Origin: Planctomycetota bacterium
GTDB taxonomy: Bacteria; Planctomycetota; UBA11346
Length of the DNA: 10,254 nucleotides
Direction of reading: 5' to 3'
Assembly (NCBI GenBank): GCA_007695355.1
Contig: REDX01000241.1
Location: 1 to 10,254, forward strand
Below the pieces are notes generated by a model. It had not been told where the DNA came from. It saw only the letters and a program-made list of their open reading frames with translations, and ran no database searches. The position numbers were made by a program, and so were the translations under genes. This document shows, piece by piece, positions 1 through 10,254 of this stretch. The stretch's first letter is position 1, and each line of letters starts with the position of its first letter.

Positions 1-3000
1 AAACCGGAATAGGGATGCTCTAACTCCGAGCGCAGCTCGTCTTCGCCCTGGCTGATGCGCAGCAGACGATAGAAGTCGGCCTGGGAGCGCGAGGCAATGG
101 GGGCCAACACCGGATTGACGGTGAGACAGTTTTCCAAATAGGAGAGTTCAAAAGCCCCTTGGTGACCGCCGAGAATATCGCCGAGATTATAGGTATCAGC
201 GCGGTTGGCGAGCATATCAGGAATGCGGAAGCGCTCGCCGGATTCGGTATAGGGGTTGCCAGCCATGACCACCGCCACCTTTTTACCGCGCATATCGTAG
301 GTGCGAGTACGGCCACGCCACACGCCCTCGATGCGCCGCTGACCGTCGCACAGGGAGATGAATTTTTGCAAAAATTCAGGATGGCAGTGCTGAATGTCAT
401 CGACATAGATCATGACATTATTGCCCATTTCAAAGCTCAAATTGAGCTTCTCCAATTCCTGGCGGGCAGTGGCATTGGGGGCCTGCTCGGGATCCAGGCT
501 GGTTACCTCGTGACCAAGGGAGGGCCCATTGATCTTCATAAAGGTGAGACCCATAATCGAAGAGACGTACTCCATGAGGGTGGTCTTGCCGTAACCCGGG
601 GGCGAGATCAGCAATAAGAGGCCCATCAGGTCGGTGCGCTTGGCATCGCCGACGGCGCCAATCTGCTTGGCCAGATTATCACCGATCAGCGGCAGATAGG
701 CCTCATTAATCAGCTTATTGCGGACAAAACTGGTAAGCACCTTGGGCTTGAATTCTTCTAAGCGCAGTCGCTCGCGTTCGCGGGTCACCAACTCCCGGCG
801 CTGGTCATGGTAGGCGCGGTAGGCGGGAATGCGCTGTTCGATAAAGCGGCTGAGGCGGGCCTCAACATCATCGAGGCGCAGCTCCATGCGGCCGCCGCTG
901 ATGCGTCCGTGCTGGCCCAGTAGGCCCTCAACTTCGACCTGGGAGCGGGCGTGCACCGAGGTGCGGGGCAATTCCGGCAGACACAGGCCCAGGGCCACTT
1001 CGTCAATAATCGGCTGCCACTCGGGATGCTGCTGCTCGGCCCAACGATCGATCCAGGCCTTGGCCAACTGCCACTGCTCTTCGCGGTTGCGGGCGAGACG
1101 GGCAAGGTCGCGGCGCAGACGATCGTCGGCCCCGCGGGTGGACAAATCGGCCCAGAAGGCCTGCTCGCACTCCTCGGCCTCGCCCGAGCGCACCGCCTGG
1201 AAATCGTCTCCCGCCGCCAATTCCTCAAGCAAGTAGCTGGCAGCATTGCGGGCATGGGAATCGCCATCGGCAGCCAGGCCACAGCGGTTTTCGTAGCTGC
1301 CGATGAGCTCCGCCATTTCCCTGATCTGGGCCTGCTGCTCGGGACCAGCGCCAAAAAGGCCGCGCAGACTGACTAAGGAGCGGCAGCGGCGTGCCAGGCG
1401 CTTGCGCTGCTCGGCATCGGGCAGATCAGCCCACCACAGCAGGGCCAGGGCGCGGGCGGCGGTGGGGAAGCGTAAGAGGCCGCAGGTGGCCCGCAGGTGC
1501 AGCAGGGCATACAGGATTTTTACCGCATCGGCATCGTGCAACCCCCGCTCGTAGCCTTCCTCGTAGCGATCGCCGGCAACCCGGCGCACCAGGGCGGTAA
1601 GCTCAGCCTCATCGAGAGCCACTTTCTGCAGATACTCGAGACTGAGGCGCTGATCGCCAACCTGGCCCCCCTTCTCGGCTATGCGGATAATGTGCATGGC
1701 GAGAAATTCAGCGCGGTAAACTTTAGCATCTTCGCTGATTAAGTCCTCATTCCAAAAACGACGGGTAGCGAGAAATGCCTCATCGCGCACCGCCTCGAAG
1801 TAATCGGTGCCGCTGAGATGGAAACACATGCCGTCATCGCGGGGCAGTAGGGTAAGTTCCAGGTCTTGGCTATTGCGGCTAAAGCGATGCCGGCCCAGTT
1901 TGACGACTTCGCCTTCAAAGAGTTCAGACTTATCGCGCAGGGCGCGCACGCCATCCTCGCGGGAGGCCTTAATCCGGCTTTCAATATCATCGGATTTTAC
2001 CGAATCGCCCAAGTCCAGCAGACGCTTAACGATATCGCGCAGTTTGCCGAGCATCGGATCGGCGGCAAACCAGGCATTTAAATCATCCAGGCTGCTAAAG
2101 CTCAGGGCCCGCTTGCGCACGCCATCGAGAATGCGATCGGCGGCGCGGGAGAGGGAATTAGCCTGACGCTGACGCTCATCTAGCAGGGTTTGTTTGCGAC
2201 TCTGGAAGACCTCGTAAATTTCTTCACGCTTTTCTGAGAGCTGCTCGGTAAATGCATCAAATTCAATAAAGCGGCCTTCGATTTCCTCCAACTGCAAGAG
2301 TAATTTGCCAAGAAAATCGTCGACCTGGGCGGGCTCCTTGGCCAGGCCCAAATAGTTATTGGCGGTTTGCGAGAGAATCGTGAACTGGGCCGCAAACTCG
2401 GCCTGACCCTCGTGGCTGCCAAGGTCTGCGCGGCGGGCGGCGGCCACTGCTTTGGCGCGGTTGAGCCGGCCGTAAACCTCGGAGATGCGCTCCAGGATTT
2501 GCGTCCGCGCCACCGGGTCGTCGATCTCCAGGCTGCCGACGATTTCCATCAGCATATCCAAGCCAGATCCCAGTTCGTCCATGCGCCCAACCACCGGGCG
2601 CAGGTCCGCGGTTTTACTCACCGCCTGGGCTTCCTTCTCGAGGCTTGCAACCTCGTCGTAATAGGGCTGCACCGCCTCCGGTTGAAGGAGGAATTCCACC
2701 GCCGCGCGCGAGCGATCATCGGCGGCCTTCGTCAGATCGGTATCTAAAGCATCGAGGACTTCGCCATTGGTATAACGCACTTCGCGCAGGGATTGCACCT
2801 GGCCGCGGCGGCGGCGGATGCTGGCGAGCACGGTGACGAATTCGTCGATGTGCTCGTAGGCGGCAATCGCCACCTCACGCAAGGTTGCGCGCACCTCATC
2901 GCTGAGGCTGCGCACCCGTTGGCTGGCCTGCTTGGTGAGCTCTTGCACCTTCTCGAATTCGCCGATTACCTGGTCAGCGGTTTTCTGCGTAACGAGCAAT

Positions 3001-4454
3001 TGCTCGCGCAGGCCGCAGGCCTCGGCATGGCCCAGCCAATGGAATTGATCGAGGGTGCGGGTAATCGTGGCGAGAAGATCCTCGTAGACTACCCGCGATG
3101 GCTTTTGATCGGCAACCAAACGGACAATATGCAGACAGTCGGAAATGGCACGCACCAAATCACGATTACCGATGGTGGCGAGATGGGATCCCGGCGGCCG
3201 CGGCTTGGAGAGGGCGTAGGACTCGTCCTCGAAGGGCGTGGCCCATAGCTGCATGGTGTGCGAACGGGTGGGCGCATCGTCGGCGCGGAAGAGTATCAAG
3301 CGGCCATTGGGATAGAGGGCATAGCCGGAACACAGTATGGGATTCGCTACCTCGCGGCTAATCAGATTATACTGCAGAATAATATAATTGCCGCCGGTGG
3401 TATCGTGGAAGATATAAGCGATATCTTCACCATTGGGCGAGCGCACCGAGCGCACAAAGGCCATGCCCTCAGCGCGATGGGGAAAGACTTTATAATCGCC
3501 AGTGGCCAAATAATAACCATTGGGGAAAATCAGACCGTGGCCCTCGGGCAATTCTTGACAGGCGACACCGATGGCATCCAGGCGCACCGCCTCCGAGGCC
3601 TGTTTATTATAGACGATATAGCGATCCACCGTCTCCTGGTAGGGGCGCATGCGCAGGACAATGCAGCTCTCTAAATTGGCATAGGCAATCTGGGCATCAT
3701 CCAGGCCCTGGGTGGCATTATCCACCGGTTCTGCATAGATACCGTCACCGGAGGCGGTGTTATCTTCAACCTTAATCGTCAAATCACCTTCGGTGCACTC
3801 GACAAAGATAGTGTCATCAATATTAATATGGGCGTGCTGCCCGTAGACGTGCATATCGCGGGTGGTGCGCGTCCATTCCCAGGAATAGCGGGGCGGCAGT
3901 ACATGGTCGCGCTCGCCGCGGTTATCGATGTATTTAAGACCATCACCGTCTAAAGCCCAGCGCAGCACTTTGACATCGCCGGCGCGAGCACCGACTTGAA
4001 AAATCATTAAAAGGTGGGTTTCGGTGCGCCGAAGCTGTAGCAGACGGGCGTCTTTGTAGTACTGAAAAAGTTCAGTGAAATCTTTAATAAATGCGGGGTC
4101 GTTAAGGGCCTCGCGCTCAGCTGGAAGGAGGGCCCCGTCCTCGAGTTTAAATTTAGCGAAGACATCGGAAACCGCGGTTGCGCGCTTGAGGCCCATGAAG
4201 ACCTGGTAGCCAAAGATCAGCTTATTACCCTGGGCGCGGACAATGTCGCGGGCCACGCAGTTATGTTCGGTCTGTAGGTGGAAGGTATCGAGGAGGCGGG
4301 TTTCGGTGCCGCCGAAGATTTCGGTGCGCCGGGCATTGAGCTGGCCGACGCGACTACGCAGCTCCTGAGCCTGGTCGCTCAAACGCCGGCGGATAACTTC
4401 ATAGGTGCCGCCATCCAGGGCCTGCTGTTGCTGTTGCTGTTGCTCGTCGGCCAC
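1..4454 (-). CDS. Giant (more than 1,480 aa) multidomain protein, truncated at its 3' (C-terminal) end by the window edge. It has an N-terminal polyQ tract, a beta-rich repeat region, a central coiled-coil/helical region, and a C-terminal AAA+ ATPase domain of the AAA_5/MoxR/dynein-related type. Function unknown.
   Basis: Manual translation of the minus strand in the frame whose codons sit on + triplets starting at positions divisible by 3. There is no stop codon from 4496 down to position 3; the only in-frame stop is TGA, complement of 4497-4499. Translated motifs: ...LMGLLLLISPPGYGKTTLMEYV (Walker A, Lys codon at 585-587), ...NNVMIYVDDIQHCHPEF (Walker B, DD at 396-401), and ...VAVVMAGNPYTESGERFRIPDMLANRADTY (sensor region typical of AAA_5/MoxR-like ATPases). 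There is no ATG between the upstream stop and codon ~88. The most upstream plausible start is GTG at 4452-4454 (complement), with a GGAG 11 nt upstream, so the start is uncertain. This ORF is not in the supplied track, presumably because it is incomplete at the window edge. Confidence 0.8.
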   Translation of the reverse strand, partial: MADEQQQQQQQALDGGTYEVIRRRLSDQAQELRSRVGQLNARRTEIFGGTETRLLDTFHLQTEHNCVARDIVRAQGNKLIFGYQVFMGLKRATAVSDVFAKFKLEDGALLPAEREALNDPAFIKDFTELFQYYKDARLLQLRRTETHLLMIFQVGARAGDVKVLRWALDGDGLKYIDNRGERDHVLPPRYSWEWTRTTRDMHVYGQHAHINIDDTIFVECTEGDLTIKVEDNTASGDGIYAEPVDNATQGLDDAQIAYANLESCIVLRMRPYQETVDRYIVYNKQASEAVRLDAIGVACQELPEGHGLIFPNGYYLATGDYKVFPHRAEGMAFVRSVRSPNGEDIAYIFHDTTGGNYIILQYNLISREVANPILCSGYALYPNGRLILFRADDAPTRSHTMQLWATPFEDESYALSKPRPPGSHLATIGNRDLVRAISDCLHIVRLVADQKPSRVVYEDLLATITRTLDQFHWLGHAEACGLREQLLVTQKTADQVIGEFEKVQELTKQASQRVRSLSDEVRATLREVAIAAYEHIDEFVTVLASIRRRRGQVQSLREVRYTNGEVLDALDTDLTKAADDRSRAAVEFLLQPEAVQPYYDEVASLEKEAQAVSKTADLRPVVGRMDELGSGLDMLMEIVGSLEIDDPVARTQILERISEVYGRLNRAKAVAAARRADLGSHEGQAEFAAQFTILSQTANNYLGLAKEPAQVDDFLGKLLLQLEEIEGRFIEFDAFTEQLSEKREEIYEVFQSRKQTLLDERQRQANSLSRAADRILDGVRKRALSFSSLDDLNAWFAADPMLGKLRDIVKRLLDLGDSVKSDDIESRIKASREDGVRALRDKSELFEGEVVKLGRHRFSRNSQDLELTLLPRDDGMCFHLSGTDYFEAVRDEAFLATRRFWNEDLISEDAKVYRAEFLAMHIIRIAEKGGQVGDQRLSLEYLQKVALDEAELTALVRRVAGDRYEEGYERGLHDADAVKILYALLHLRATCGLLRFPTAARALALLWWADLPDAEQRKRLARRCRSLVSLRGLFGAGPEQQAQIREMAELIGSYENRCGLAADGDSHARNAASYLLEELAAGDDFQAVRSGEAEECEQAFWADLSTRGADDRLRRDLARLARNREEQWQLAKAWIDRWAEQQHPEWQPIIDEVALGLCLPELPRTSVHARSQVEVEGLLGQHGRISGGRMELRLDDVEARLSRFIEQRIPAYRAYHDQRRELVTRERERLRLEEFKPKVLTSFVRNKLINEAYLPLIGDNLAKQIGAVGDAKRTDLMGLLLLISPPGYGKTTLMEYVSSIMGLTFMKINGPSLGHEVTSLDPEQAPNATARQELEKLNLSFEMGNNVMIYVDDIQHCHPEFLQKFISLCDGQRRIEGVWRGRTRTYDMRGKKVAVVMAGNPYTESGERFRIPDMLANRADTYNLGDILGGHQGAFELSYLENCLTVNPVLAPIASRSQADFYRLLRISQGEDELRSELEHPYSG
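140..650 (-). other. AAA+ ATPase module (P-loop, Walker B, sensor) inside the giant CDS
   Basis: Seen in the translation: GYGKTT P-loop, hhhhDD Walker B, and a GNPxxExG...IPDxLxNRxD motif resembling MoxR/AAA_5 'ATQNP...LPEAxLDRF'. Confidence 0.7.
4422..4442 (-). repeat. Hexanucleotide/trinucleotide microsatellite, ctg(ctgttg)x3 on the + strand. It encodes QQQQQQQ near the N-terminus of the giant CDS.
   Basis: Direct reading: ctgctgttgctgttgctgttg. In the minus coding frame this is cag cag caa cag caa cag caa. Confidence 0.85.
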
Positions 4455-4503
4455 GGTACTCAGGGCTCCAGATCGGGGGGATGAAGATCGCGGGGATCAA
4501 TGA

Positions 4504-4544: not shown

Positions 4545-6560
4545 TTATTTCTCGTTCTGTAGCCAGCCGCTTAGATCATCAAAACCCAACTCCTTGGCTT
4601 TGGCCAGAAGCTCTTGCACCTTGGCCGGATCGCTGGTACCGATCTTGCGCATCAGCCAGGAGCTCACCAGGTTTTTGACATCTCCACTACCCAGCTTGCC
4701 GCTGCCTAGGACCTGAACCAAATCGGCGGGCAAAGAACGACCGCCTTCCATATAGTCGCTGGCGGCGTGCTGCAGGAGATCGCTGCGCCCGTGGGCGGCA
4801 TCAAGGCTCTTGCCGAAGGTGACCGCTTTGACGAAGCGATCGAAGAATTGGCCGTCGCCACCGACAATGTCGATCTTGGCCTTCTCCAGGGCCTGAGCCA
4901 TGACATGGGCGTTCTTCTCGGCGATTTCCACCTGGGCGCTGATCTCGGCCTTGGCGATTGAGAGGTCCTTCTCCAATCGCAGGCGAAACTCTTCGTGGGA
5001 GCGGGTGCTCTCGTTGAGCAGCTTCATCGCTTCGGCTTTCTCTGAGATGCCGGCGGCCTCGGCGGCCATCTTCTCGCGCACCGCATCGGCTTCCGCCTTG
5101 CCGCGCAGGGCGATGACCTTGGCCTGGGCCTCTTCCACCCGGACCTGAGCCAAGCCCTGCTTCTCGCTGGCGGCAGCATCGGCTTCCTTAACCTTGGCCG
5201 CGGCCAAGCCATCGGCGGCGGCGGTGGCCTGGCTGCCTTCGGCGCGACGAATGGCGGCCTGGGCTTCCTTCTCGGCGGCGGCCTGCTCGGCCTCGGCGAG
5301 GACCAGTTTTTCTTTGGCGTTATGCACCGCAGAGAGCTCAGCGGCTTCGGCGGCCTGAACTTCGCGGATCTTGCGATCGGCAGCTTCGGCTTCGGCGCGG
5401 GTTACCGCCACCTGCTTAATACGATCGGCTTCCATGGTAGCGCGGATATCCTTGATCCGCTCTTCTTCCTGGGCTACCGACTTTTCCACCACCACCCGTT
5501 CGCGGATTACCTCGGCGATATTCTTACGCTCGACTTCCAGGGCCTTTTCTTTCTCAATACGCTGCAGTTCCACCGCACGCTCGCGGTTGATGCGTTCGAG
5601 ATCGCGCTCTTTCTCAACCCGCTCTTCTTCCACAGCGATAACACGCTCGCGATTTTTAGCTGCTACTTCGACTTCGCGCTGGGCGTTTTCGCGGTCGATG
5701 CCAAGCTTCTGCTCGGCTTCGATATTGGCTTGATCAGAGCGGTATTTCTCTTCGAACTGCACCTTCTCAATTTCCGCGGTCTCGCGGGCGGCAACCACCG
5801 CAACTTCGCGCTGCTGTTTGGCCACCGCATCGGCTTCCTGGCGCTCAAGGGCAAGGATGGCTTCGCGGGCTTCGACGTCTTGCTTCTTCAACGCCTTTTC
5901 ACCCTCGCGCTGGATCTCGTTGGCGTGCACCCGTTGGTTGGTGGTGAGGTCGATAATCTTGCGCCGTCCTTGGGCATCAAGAATGTTGTCAGGATCCAAG
6001 CTGGAGAGCGGGGTTTGCTCGAGATAGTCAATGGCGCTGTCTTCAAGCACATAACCTGAGAGGTCTTTGCCGATAACATCGATAATCGCTTCTTTGAACT
6101 TTTGGCGCTCATTATAGAGGTCCTCAAAGTCCATCTGTTTACCGACGGTTTTCAGGGCTTCGGAGAACTTGGCGCTAAAGAGTTCTTCCAGGGTTTCCCG
6201 GCGGCTGGCCCGTTGGACACCGACATTGGTGGCCACCTTGCGCACATCGTCAGCGGTGGGGTTCACCTTAACGAAGAAAGTCACCTTTATATCAGCGCGA
6301 ATATTATCGCGGCAGATCAAGCCGTTCTTGCCTTGCCGGTCGATCTCGATGGTCTTCACCGAGATATCCATAATTTCCACCTTGTGGATAACCGGGATAA
6401 CGACACCACCGGTAAAGACCACGTCAGGTTCGCGTTTCATTTTATTGATAATCAGCGCCTTACCCTGCTCTACCTTGCGATAGAGCGAGAAGATCATGAT
6501 TATAATGCCCAAGAGAATAAAGAGCAGGATCGCCGCAGCGAGAATCACATAAATCAACAT
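4545..6560 (-). CDS. yqiK: Flotillin-like SPFH/Band-7 family protein (YqiK-like). It has an N-terminal TM helix, an SPFH domain and a long Ala/Glu-rich coiled coil.
   Basis: ORF-track protein of 671 aa. Its N-terminus MLIYVILAAAILLFILLGIIIMIFSLYRKVEQGKALIINKMKREPDVVFTGGVVIPVIHKVEIMDISVKTIEIDRQGKNGLICRDNIRADIKVTFFVKVN is a classic flotillin/YqiK start. The EA/AK-rich coiled coil is typical. A GGAG lies 7 nt upstream of the ATG at 6560 on the minus strand. Confidence 0.9.
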   Translation of the reverse strand: MLIYVILAAAILLFILLGIIIMIFSLYRKVEQGKALIINKMKREPDVVFTGGVVIPVIHKVEIMDISVKTIEIDRQGKNGLICRDNIRADIKVTFFVKVNPTADDVRKVATNVGVQRASRRETLEELFSAKFSEALKTVGKQMDFEDLYNERQKFKEAIIDVIGKDLSGYVLEDSAIDYLEQTPLSSLDPDNILDAQGRRKIIDLTTNQRVHANEIQREGEKALKKQDVEAREAILALERQEADAVAKQQREVAVVAARETAEIEKVQFEEKYRSDQANIEAEQKLGIDRENAQREVEVAAKNRERVIAVEEERVEKERDLERINRERAVELQRIEKEKALEVERKNIAEVIRERVVVEKSVAQEEERIKDIRATMEADRIKQVAVTRAEAEAADRKIREVQAAEAAELSAVHNAKEKLVLAEAEQAAAEKEAQAAIRRAEGSQATAAADGLAAAKVKEADAAASEKQGLAQVRVEEAQAKVIALRGKAEADAVREKMAAEAAGISEKAEAMKLLNESTRSHEEFRLRLEKDLSIAKAEISAQVEIAEKNAHVMAQALEKAKIDIVGGDGQFFDRFVKAVTFGKSLDAAHGRSDLLQHAASDYMEGGRSLPADLVQVLGSGKLGSGDVKNLVSSWLMRKIGTSDPAKVQELLAKAKELGFDDLSGWLQNEK

Positions 6561-7436: not shown

Positions 7437-8276
7437 ATGTTTCGCGCCATCGGTCGTTGGTTCCGCAGCCTCGGATATTTGGTTAGTGGCCGGGTTGAGT
7501 CCTCGGCCCGACGCATGGATACAGATCCCCACGCCATGCGCTCGAAGTACGATGATGTGATCCGGGAAAAGACCAAGCGCATCCAGCAATATAAAGAAGC
7601 GGTGGCCGGACTCATCGCCCAGCAAGAACACAAGATGAGTCAGGTCAAAAATCTGAGCGAAGAACTCAAGCACCTGGAAGATCTCAAGGCCGGCGCCCTC
7701 GCCAAGGCCCAGCAGCGGGTGGGCGAACTACAGGCCAAGGGCGCCGATAAATCCGTCATCCAGAGCGACCCCGATTACCAGAAATGCCTGAACGCCTTTA
7801 ATGACTTCACCTCCACCGGCACCGAAAAGCAGGCCCGCGTCGATGAAGCCGAAGGCGAAATCGAGGATTTTGGCCGGCGCATTAAAGAGCACACCTTGCA
7901 GTTGGAAGTGCTGCGCAAGGAAATCGAAAAGCTGCGCTCGGAAGCTAACGAGGCGGTGGCCGATGTGATCTCGGCCAAGCAAGAGGCCGAACTCAATGAT
8001 GCTCTTTCCGGCATTGGCACCGACTCCACCTCAGAGAAGCTTGGCGAGCTGCGCCGTATGCGCTCGGAAGTCAAGGCCAGCGCCCGGGTTAGCAAAGAGC
8101 TGGCGGGCACCGATCACAAACTGGCCGAAGCCGAATTCCTGGAATACGCCCGTAAAAACGCCGGCAATACGGAGTTCGAACGTCTGGTGGGGCTGGCCGC
8201 CGGCAGCGATGCCCCAAGCCCCGAGGCCAGTGAAAAGGCCGCGCCCAGCCCTGAACGCGAGCGCCTGCCCGAATAG
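7437..8276 (+). CDS. pspA: PspA/IM30/Vipp1-family (ESCRT-III superfamily) coiled-coil membrane-remodelling protein
   Basis: 279-aa ORF. It has an N-terminal amphipathic helix MFRAIGRWFRSLGYLV, followed by long heptad coiled-coil sequence (KEAVAGLIAQQEHKMSQVKNLSEELKHLEDLKAGALAKAQQRVGELQ...) whose length and periodicity are like PspA/Vipp1. A GGAGA RBS lies at -6. It sits immediately upstream of an AAA+ ATPase, a documented PspA partner. The family assignment is by pattern, not by search. Confidence 0.7.
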   Translation: MFRAIGRWFRSLGYLVSGRVESSARRMDTDPHAMRSKYDDVIREKTKRIQQYKEAVAGLIAQQEHKMSQVKNLSEELKHLEDLKAGALAKAQQRVGELQAKGADKSVIQSDPDYQKCLNAFNDFTSTGTEKQARVDEAEGEIEDFGRRIKEHTLQLEVLRKEIEKLRSEANEAVADVISAKQEAELNDALSGIGTDSTSEKLGELRRMRSEVKASARVSKELAGTDHKLAEAEFLEYARKNAGNTEFERLVGLAAGSDAPSPEASEKAAPSPERERLPE

Positions 8277-8293: not shown

Positions 8294-10090
8294 ATGGTCT
8301 CCTCTCCCACCCGCTCTCAATTGCGCTTTCTGCGCGACGCGGCGCGCCTGCTTAATGCCGGGCAGACCCGCAGCCTTATTCTATCTGGTAATGTCGCCGA
8401 CCTCTTCCCCCCTCCCGACGGCGACGGGAACGATGAATGGGTACCCCTGCCCGAACTCCTACGCCGCTCCTGGAGCGTGCCCGGGCGGCTGGTCATTACC
8501 TACGAAATCAATGGCCCCCTGCGCTTCCAAAGCGAAGCCGTGCAGCGTCGCCTGCGCGATGCCTGGGTGCGCTGGCGCACCGGCCTGGGCCCGGGTGACC
8601 TCGCCCTACAGCGCCTAGCCAGCGGCCAATCCCCCGGCGATATTGATGCCGGCTTTGACCAGCTCTGTGCCCAGGCCATTGGCAAGCCAACCCTGGCCCT
8701 CGAGCTCTTGCGCCAGTTCTGCTGTTGCTCGCGCCTCGAACATCAGGGGGCGCCGGTGCTGCGCGAGGACCTGCTGATCATTATTGAGGCCGCCGATCTG
8801 ATTCTCCCCGAGGCGACGATTTCCTCCCTCGGCGATGCCGATCGCCAGCGCCTGCATATCTGTCACGACTGGTTTGCCGATCCCGAATTTAATGCCGCCT
8901 ACGATGCGGTGGTGCTCATCTGTGAAAGCCGGGCCGCCCTCAATCAGCGCATCGCTCGACTGCCGCAGATGCTAGAAATGACGGTGGACGATCCGGATCT
9001 CGCACTACGCGAGGCCTATATCGCCCACGAGGACATCCCGGAACTCAGCCCCGAGGATCGGACGCGCCTAGCCCTCGGCTCGGCCGGCCTCACCATCCAT
9101 GCCCTGCGTCAGCTGCTCCTCGGCATAAACCATAACCATGGCACCTGGAGCCCGGCCCTCCTCATCGATAAGGTGGAAGAGCATTTGCTGGCGCAATTGG
9201 GGGAGGATTCCATCTCCTTTTCCCGGCCCAACCACACCCTTGCCCAGGTCATGGGCTTTGACCGCCTCAAGCGCTTTCTCGCCGAAGAGCTGGTGCCGCG
9301 ACTGCGCCACGGTGGCGCCGCCGCCCTTTCCGGGGCCGCGGTATGCGGGCCCATCGGCGCCGGTAAGACCTTTATCTTTGAGGCCGTGGCCGGGGAATTG
9401 GGCCTGCCAGTTTTAGAGCTCAAAAATCTGCGCTCGCAGTGGTTTGGCCAGACCGATGCCATTGTCGAGCGCCTGCGCCGCCTGCTCACCGCCCTCGATC
9501 GGGTGGTAATTATGGTCGACGAAGCTGACACCCAATTTGGCGATCTGGGCCCGGGCAGCCACGAAACCGAACGCCGTCTCACCGGCCGCCTACAAAGCAT
9601 GATGAGCGACCCTAAGCTTTTAGGTAAGGTTTTTTGGCTGCTCATGACCGCCCGCATCGACCGCCTCTCGGCCGACCTTCGCCGCCCCGGCAGAGCTGGG
9701 GATCTGATTATCCCGGTCCTTGATCCCAGCCCGGAAGAGCGCCAGGCCTTCGTCCTTTGGACCTGCGAACCGGTGTGCCTGGCACCCTCACACGGATTGC
9801 GCAAGCGCCTGCTGGCCCACACCCATGACTGGTCTGCCGCCGCCTACGCCAGCCTGCGCCGAGAACTGCAGGCCCAGCGCAATACCCTAGGCAAAGACCT
9901 CAGCGAGGCCGAAATCCTGGCCCTGGTCGAAGACCGCCTGCTACCCCCCCTGGCCCAAGTACGACGCCGACAAACCCTGCTCGCCCTACTCAATTGCACC
10001 CGGCGCAGCCTGCTGCCCGATCCCGAAGTGGATGAGGCCACGCGCGAATCCTGGCGCCGAGAACTGGCGGCCCTCGAGATGACTCCGTAG
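8294..10090 (+). CDS. Classical-clade AAA+ ATPase (Vps4/FtsH-like ATPase core) with a roughly 330-aa N-terminal domain, possibly a degenerate pseudo-ATPase, and a C-terminal helical region
   Basis: 598-aa ORF with Walker A CGPIGAGKTF, Walker B VVIMVDEAD, sensor-1 region LLMTAR, and an arginine-finger-like DLRRPGRAGDLI (compare RPGRFDR of classical AAA). The N-terminal half contains Walker-B-like LLIIIEAADLI without a P-loop. It starts 17 nt after the PspA stop, with no obvious Shine-Dalgarno sequence, so coupling is likely. Confidence 0.85.
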   Translation: MVSSPTRSQLRFLRDAARLLNAGQTRSLILSGNVADLFPPPDGDGNDEWVPLPELLRRSWSVPGRLVITYEINGPLRFQSEAVQRRLRDAWVRWRTGLGPGDLALQRLASGQSPGDIDAGFDQLCAQAIGKPTLALELLRQFCCCSRLEHQGAPVLREDLLIIIEAADLILPEATISSLGDADRQRLHICHDWFADPEFNAAYDAVVLICESRAALNQRIARLPQMLEMTVDDPDLALREAYIAHEDIPELSPEDRTRLALGSAGLTIHALRQLLLGINHNHGTWSPALLIDKVEEHLLAQLGEDSISFSRPNHTLAQVMGFDRLKRFLAEELVPRLRHGGAAALSGAAVCGPIGAGKTFIFEAVAGELGLPVLELKNLRSQWFGQTDAIVERLRRLLTALDRVVIMVDEADTQFGDLGPGSHETERRLTGRLQSMMSDPKLLGKVFWLLMTARIDRLSADLRRPGRAGDLIIPVLDPSPEERQAFVLWTCEPVCLAPSHGLRKRLLAHTHDWSAAAYASLRRELQAQRNTLGKDLSEAEILALVEDRLLPPLAQVRRRQTLLALLNCTRRSLLPDPEVDEATRESWRRELAALEMTP

Positions 10091-10103: not shown

Positions 10104-10254
10104 GACATAAATAAGGGACATAAATAAGGTAAATGAGGGTAAATGAGGTAAATGAGGGACATGCAGTAAGGTAAATGAGGGACATGCAGTAAATAATAAG
10201 ATAAATGAGGATAAATGAGGATAAATGAGGATAAATGAGGATAAATGAGGATAA
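10104..10254. repeat. AT-rich nested tandem-repeat array: 13-mer gacataaataagg x2, then 23-mer ggtaaatgagggacatgcagtaa x2, then decamer ataaatgagg x5 or more, continuing beyond the window. It is built on a core TAAATGAGG motif that occurs 9 times in total.
   Basis: Direct reading of 10104-10254. Five perfect decamer copies lie at 10201-10250 plus a partial sixth. There are stop codons in all frames. It sits immediately downstream of the AAA+ gene stop at 10088-10090. Confidence 0.9.

Follow-up and report, generated by a model that had tools for sequence, protein, structure and literature searches.

Introduction

Bacterial intergenic VNTR loci, for example those of the mycobacterial MIRU type, are used for MLVA typing. 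Phased A-tract DNA is found in kinetoplast-type bends and in the curved upstream elements of bacterial promoters. The type II partition centromere of plasmid R1, parC, consists of ten 11-bp direct repeats bound by ParR, plasmid iterons are usually 17–22 bp long, and the DnaA-box arrays of oriC and datA are made up of closely spaced 9-mers in the same orientation.

Here we describe an AT-rich array of short tandem repeats from an uncultured Planctomycete and compare it with these systems. The stretch of DNA analyzed, referred to below as the window, is one complete contig (10,254 bp) of a Planctomycetota MAG, and the array (10104..10254, + strand), with its 11 same-orientation TAAAT[G/A]AGG cores, ends at the contig end. 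A first-pass annotation had described it as running off the window; this was right, but because the window is the complete contig, the array leaves the assembly too. Our analysis suggests that the array is probably an ordinary, lineage-specific, non-coding, AT-rich intergenic minisatellite of the VNTR type, which would have arisen by slippage and may vary in this organism, is predicted to be curved, lies at a variable cluster boundary and would be the cause of the contig break.

Anatomy and composition of the array

The array begins 13 nt past the stop codon of the AAA+ ATPase gene (ORF 8294-10090), just downstream of which it had originally been placed. TRF recovered the nested structure that had been reported for this region, a 13-mer in two copies, a 23-mer in two copies and a run of decamers, with scores of 52–134 for the tandem units. 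Closest to the gene are two degenerate units of GACATAAATAAGG (10104..10129, + strand; family D3; TRF period 13, 2.0 copies, 100% match), which carry the core variant TAAATAAGG. Three TAAATGAGG cores then lie at 10130..10157 (+ strand), joined by a G linker or by none, with a period of 10 and then 9. The 23-mer AGGTAAATGAGGGACATGCAGTA, a composite of one core and GACATGCAGTA, is present twice at 10146..10192 (+ strand; TRF period 23, 2.0 copies, 100% match, score 94). The distal part is a homogeneous run of GATAAATGAG (10200..10254, + strand), which is perfectly periodic to the last base of the contig; at 55 nt and 5.5 copies, it agrees with the earlier count of five or more decamers. TRF rows of period 10 span 10120/10128 to 10254.

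All 11 cores are on the + strand within 10108-10250, with start-to-start spacings of 13, 9, 10, 9, 23, 30, 10, 10, 10 and 10. Their linkers, in order, are GACA, none, G, none, GACATGCAGTAAGG, GACATGCAGTAAATAATAAGA and then A four times. With up to one mismatch allowed, 13 core sites were found in the window where 1.7 were expected, a number reached in 0 of 200 shuffles. Along the array the units pass from degenerate at the gene-proximal end to homogeneous at the distal end. This gradient would have arisen as a unit of ~10 bp was multiplied by repeated replication slippage or unequal recombination, while the older gene-proximal copies diverged and were then re-duplicated as composite units of 13 and 23 bp. 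The identity of the distal copies indicates that the expansion was recent.

The array has a GC content of 32.5%, compared with 59.5% for the remaining window. The first-pass annotation had put its AT content at 70%, which is slightly high (67.5%), but the contrast that it drew between an AT-rich array and surroundings of roughly 60% GC holds. The base composition of the array is 48% A, 29% G, 19% T and 4% C, and purines account for 77% of the + strand, which contains only 6 C.

The repeats are not a CRISPR array, as had already been concluded. The units are contiguous and 9–23 bp long, the linkers (0–21 nt) are themselves repeated, and repeats of 23–50 bp with unique spacers of similar size were not seen.

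On the minus strand, no stop codon is present across the array in any frame, which would fit a gene entering from the right that ends in a C-terminal coding repeat, (LIYPHLSSFI)n. We find such a gene scarcely credible. All three open frames extend into the AAA+ gene by 100 nt or more (to at least 9990), and one continues to 9844, which would give an overlap of ~250 nt with the AAA+ gene. Moreover, coding sequence in a genome of 60% GC would not have a GC content of 32%, the unit length of 10 nt is not divisible by 3 and the peptide is of low complexity. The array has two of the properties expected of a minisatellite: its tandem units are arranged head-to-tail (within a range of ~6–100 bp) far above chance, and it is non-coding, since the open minus-strand frames would overlap the AAA+ gene.

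The contig end as a probable product of assembly

From 10200 to its last base, exactly 55 nt, the contig is perfectly periodic at 10 nt; no longer suffix has this property. The largest default k of metaSPAdes is 55, and in a de Bruijn graph a contig ends at the first k-mer that is periodic throughout, since the unique path there joins the loop formed by a tandem repeat. A 55-nt periodic tail is what a de Bruijn assembler with k = 55, if one was used for this MAG, would leave on entering the repeat loop. The break in the contig would thus be due to the perfect run, which closes into a loop when short reads are assembled as a graph; with a tail of exactly one k of 55 nt, the open end of the array would be an assembly effect. 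The true periodic run would then be longer than ~65 nt, with a copy number that cannot be read from the present assembly. Just past the contig end there could be a regulated gene, a rep or par gene, or a mobile element.

A protein identical to the AAA+ product was found on no contig besides the window's own. A search for fragmentary copies with the C-terminal 120 aa of this product returned only relatives with at most 68% identity, and a scan of genome collections returned relatives with at most 73% identity. In the sister MAG at 73%, the AAA+ homolog is split between the end of REDP01000115.1 (L001) and the start of REDP01000260.1 (L016); these two contigs do not overlap in sequence, and the break falls inside the AAA+ homolog, where there is no repeat.

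Gene neighborhood and comparison with relatives

The gene next to the array (8294..10090, + strand) encodes an AAA+ ATPase of 598 aa (PF00004, E = 1.5e-16) and is the last gene of a conserved cluster. Its product is 100% identical to TVR42228.1, annotated as "MAG: ATP-binding protein [Planctomycetota bacterium]", and has weak CDC48/CdvC/PAN-like matches. It has 2238 homologs, nearly all of 590–625 aa with a query coverage of 96–100%, in Planctomycetota, Verrucomicrobiota, Lentisphaerae, Hydrogenedentes, Acidobacteriota and other phyla, and its C-terminus is full length when set against relatives. The rest of the cluster consists of a PspA-like coiled-coil protein (7437-8276, + strand), encoded divergently from the minus-strand genes, and, on the minus strand, a membrane protein, a flotillin/SPFH protein of 671 aa (4545-6560) and a giant DUF3686 protein, a "DNA-repair ATPase" (3-4496), which has an AAA domain in its C-terminal part, measures at least 1498 aa and runs off the left end of the window. 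The cluster resembles an ESCRT-III/Vps4-like membrane-remodeling module. PADLOC gave no meaningful defence match on the window, and a defence-island context was rejected. A separate short repeat, (TGCTGT) x3.7 at 4423-4444 (+ strand), encodes, when read on the minus strand, the poly-glutamine stretch (QQQQQQQ) that the DUF3686 protein has close to its N-terminus.

Synteny at the nucleotide level with the Planctomycetota MAG of 73% identity extends over almost all of the window as far as the AAA+ gene. Beyond that gene, each of three relatives has a different arrangement. In a relative with 77% identity (Logan contigs L014/L015), a convergent Hpt gene lies 2 nt past the AAA+ stop codon, and a cation-efflux gene and RNase Y come next. 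In the 73% relative (L016/L017, with the AAA+ 3' end on REDP01000260.1, which is L016), a 49-nt spacer leads to a convergent pdxA, followed by dcd and queA. In a relative with 53% identity (L002), a convergent ORF of 386 aa ends 1 nt past the AAA+ stop. The suggestion that the array marks a junction is in keeping with these arrangements, as the array stands where synteny stops, and the three relatives have three different downstream genes and the array in none.

No comparable tandem array was found in L001-L004 or L014-L016, of which L003 and L004 are Lentisphaerae loci, and no clustering of the core motif was found in L001-L004, L014 or L015 (L016 was checked for arrays only). Given that the relatives have no array and that the AAA+ protein is full length, the array is a lineage-specific addition. 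It lies exactly at the end of the conserved cluster, where the neighborhood turns variable. A Victivallis-related locus (L004:9063-9133) has an AT-rich direct repeat of 35 bp in two copies ~130 nt downstream of its AAA+ homolog, with a sequence unrelated to that of the window's array.

The same decamer in other metagenome contigs

A metagenome scan with three consecutive decamer units as the query yielded nine contigs with a decamer array, none of which shares its flanks with the window. Apart from the window, the contigs with this decamer are eukaryotic-looking or of uncertain origin. Four of them represent one locus, in which 4–6 decamer units lie between convergent genes (L005:8709-8785, L010:2943-3020, L008:11085-11150 and L013:2635-2695). 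The organism is marine, picoeukaryote-like and 62% GC, and its genes look eukaryotic, with transit-peptide-like N-terminal extensions, an RGG-rich DEAD-box helicase and a trpA-like (tryptophan-synthase-alpha-like) gene that appears to be split by an intron. The unit counts in these environmental variants are 6, 6, 5 and 4, and so differ by whole units. As the decamer varies in this way at an unrelated locus, the unit arises independently and is prone to slippage.

Three further contigs, all from metagenome Ga0126342, contain long arrays of GATAAATGAG/GATAAATGAT or of GGGTAAATGA (L006:14240-14377, L007:1-175 and L011:7251-7349). They are 40–44% GC, ORF-poor and eukaryote-like, and both GGA- and GGG-linked variants of the unit are present. 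Two of them end or begin in the array, so the decamer repeat breaks that assembly as well. At the end of another contig (L009:951-1031), (TAAATGAGGG) x3 gives way to ~50 nt of poly-G, apparently an artefact of two-color sequencing chemistry. The occurrence of decamer arrays in eukaryote-like contigs weakens the case for a bacterial protein that recognizes this sequence.

These contigs also bear on whether the array is truly beside the AAA+ gene, or is an assembly artefact or chimera, such as a eukaryotic satellite joined on to the contig or noise from low-complexity reads. It is at the extreme end of a short-read MAG contig, the other contigs with the decamer are of the eukaryotic-looking or uncertain kind just described, and one of them, L009, has the poly-G end. 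We nevertheless hold an artefact to be very unlikely. About 100 nt of unique, non-periodic variants (10104-10199), which are absent from the other contigs, bridge the gene end and the perfect run; a chimeric join in a k = 55 graph needs shared 54-mers, and none are evident; and the array contains no adaptor-like or poly-G sequence. The earlier concern about an assembly artefact is warranted for the cut-off at exactly 55 periodic bases, which would be an assembly effect, but not for the array itself, which looks genuine.

Predicted curvature and helical phasing

The unit length of the decamer equals the helical repeat of DNA and each unit contains an A/T tract, from which the array would be expected to be curved and easy to melt. 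Curvature was modeled with dinucleotide wedges and parameters of the Bolshoy/Trifonov type, and the values are to be read only relative to each other. On this relative scale, the ratio of end-to-end distance to contour length of the 151-bp array was 0.656, whereas 399 other segments of 151 bp averaged 0.957 and none fell below 0.845. Shuffles of the same composition gave a ratio of 0.933 ± 0.043 in the wedge model, and the value of the array was reached in 0 of 500. The predicted curvature was abolished when the period was set to 8, 9 or 12 bp. Over 134 bp, and despite the steps of 23 and 30 nt, the cores also keep close to a single face of the helix (resultant length 0.68–0.69 at a helical repeat of 10–10.5 bp).

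Intrinsic curvature above background, caused by phased A/T tracts, is thus a supported prediction of the model, in line with the first-pass annotation, which had listed intrinsically bent DNA among its suggestions. Since bending is the automatic result of any unit of ~10 bp with an A/T tract, bending alone does not imply selection. Any influence of the array on the neighboring genes would be exerted through a physical property of this kind, for example through the binding of nucleoid proteins, and might shape the end of the transcription unit.

Functional signals in the array

Each decamer contains GAGG-ATAA-ATG, which the first-pass annotation had interpreted as a Shine-Dalgarno-like sequence plus a start codon. 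The motif is present in every decamer, but the interpretation is not upheld. GAGG is 4 nt from each ATG of the array, whereas GGAG is found 7 nt before the start of the flotillin and PspA-like genes. No coding was found on the + strand, where all three frames are closed and each ATG gives only a 7-codon ORF, MRINEDK*. A role as a promoter or a terminator had also been put forward; no sigma-70 promoter was predicted in or near the array and no intrinsic terminator at it, and neither role is supported.

Variable expression could be achieved if the array were a phase-variable or expression-tuning repeat, in which the gain or loss of 10-bp units alters the promoter distance or translation initiation of a gene to the right. 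The perfect homogeneous run is a substrate for slippage, the same decamer varies by whole units elsewhere, and GAGG-N4-ATG recurs in each unit. Even so, we regard a switch of this type as quite improbable. The array has no promoter-like site, its ATGs lead only into the short ORFs in closed + frames, and the 4-nt spacing differs from the 7-nt spacing of two genuine genes in the window. In addition, the neighbor is convergent in all three relatives with downstream sequence, which would place the array between two gene 3' ends, and a change by one helical turn switches neither the reading frame nor the helical face.

Folding of the array as RNA was no better than that of shuffles on either strand (z = +1.7 and +0.1), and Rfam gave no match on the array at the gathering score or at E ≤ 1. 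No tRNA, tmRNA or CRISPR was found. There was no match among viral contigs, INPHARED phages or PLSDB plasmids, and no rep, par, dnaA or integrase gene within the window. A literature search for the decamer returned isolated primer-like occurrences only and never its tandem form.

Several other candidates were considered and rejected. A structured RNA or terminator was ruled out by the shuffle-level folding together with the lack of a predicted terminator. A transposon end, Tn7-like or other, was rejected because neither a terminal TGT nor an inverted repeat was found in the array. A telomere was considered on account of the C-poor strand running 5' to 3' toward the end and of the proximal position of the variant units; this was rejected because the array is in an ordinary, syntenic chromosomal gene context, the assembly graph accounts for the 55-nt tail, and the eukaryote-like contigs carry the decamer repeat internally or in the wrong orientation.

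DnaA-like and other protein-binding readings

Read on the minus strand, the homogeneous block is TTATCCTCA repeated five times with a 10-bp period, each copy one mismatch (8/9) away from the DnaA box TTATCCACA. Depending on the composition model, the chance of such a likeness for a random decamer array is 0.2–1.2%. No box matching the consensus TTWTNCACA is present in the array, and TTATCCTCA has a T at position 7, which is fixed in the consensus. The DnaA-like reading is limited to the five homogeneous units, and the proximal variants lose the match. The only TTWTNCACA box in the window, TTATCCACA at 6383-6391 (minus strand), is inside the flotillin gene and is compatible with chance, as 43 of 200 shuffles hold at least one consensus box. 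No origin-type neighborhood (dnaA, dnaN) was found in the window or among the downstream genes of the relatives. As in a parC-like site, there are 11 direct-repeat cores with spacings of mostly 9–13 bp; no partition operon was found on the left side of the array.

These features were weighed as evidence for an array of protein-binding sites in phase with the helix, at the margin of DNA that is lineage-specific and possibly mobile. It could consist of DnaA-box-like sites with an origin-like or titrating role, a ParR-type centromere, iterons, or arm sites for an integrase or transposase; in each case, bound protein would cover one side of the helix and form the nucleus of a higher-order complex. 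The 11 same-orientation cores hold near one helical face, as selection for protein binding would also give; TTATCCTCA recurs five times at 10 bp with a single mismatch from TTATCCACA, at the low chance given above; the sequence is AT-rich, with predicted curvature; and the array is located exactly where synteny with relatives is lost. On balance, we consider a binding array, with the DnaA-like reading as the chief competitor of the minisatellite, unlikely. The mismatch is at the fixed position 7 of the consensus, no consensus box is present, and only the five homogeneous units can be read as DnaA-like. The same decamer array is present in eukaryote-like contigs, which have no DnaA. The first-pass annotation had named iterons of a replication origin as one possibility, which is not supported, given a core of 9–10 bp, half the length of classical iterons and not 17–22 bp, the lack of rep, par, dnaA and integrase genes in the window and the lack of plasmid or phage similarity. 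More specifically, it is highly improbable that the homogeneous block is an acquired site, tuned by copy number, for the loading or titration of DnaA or for the nucleation of another filament, such as a centromere, on curved and easily melted DNA.

Discussion

Status as a regulatory switch or a replication origin finds no support in any signal examined, and we return to an intergenic minisatellite, produced and homogenized by slippage, as the probable nature of the array. The main lesson is one of caution: the sequence is genuine, but its striking open end probably stems from a short-read assembly that stopped at a repeat loop. If the array is polymorphic in this uncultured Planctomycete, it would be usable as a strain marker, and would provide an example of a curved, AT-rich minisatellite that arose at the boundary of a widely conserved membrane-remodeling gene cluster. 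Only if it were a protein-loading array would it offer new insight into the control of replication or segregation in Planctomycetota.

Like R1 parC and plasmid iterons, the array has many short direct repeats in one orientation at about one helical turn; unlike them, it has no visible par or rep gene and no plasmid similarity, and is in a chromosomal, syntenic context. Its likeness to the DnaA-box arrays of oriC and datA lies in the head-to-tail TTATCCTCA 9-mers with a 1-nt spacer in AT-rich DNA, whereas its copies are all off-consensus at a fixed position, there is no dnaA/dnaN context, and the motif is also found in eukaryote-like contigs. The picoeukaryote-like (GAGGATAAAT)n array consists of the same decamer, directly past a stop codon in a ~60% GC genome, but it belongs to an unrelated organism with unrelated flanks and is enclosed between the arms of an inverted repeat, GGTTGAGGAT...ATCCTCAACC, whereas the window's array has no inverted repeat. 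As in phased A-tract curved DNA, the A/T tracts of the array return with a 10-bp period, and its modeled curvature per turn is about that of an A5N5 control; the tract is TAAAT, in contrast to the pure A4-6 run of A-tract DNA, the array has no promoter, and its curvature is a modeled one only.

Among VNTRs of the MLVA/MIRU type, to which it would belong, the array is more extreme than typical MLVA loci, with 32% GC in a 60% GC genome and a period of exactly one helical turn. It shares with them head-to-tail units of ~10 to a few tens of bp, a position in a non-coding spacer and variant units that flank a homogeneous block, and, like them, it is lineage-specific, prone to slippage and a breaking point for short-read assemblies. 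This kind of element is already known, and the array is a new but ordinary example of it.
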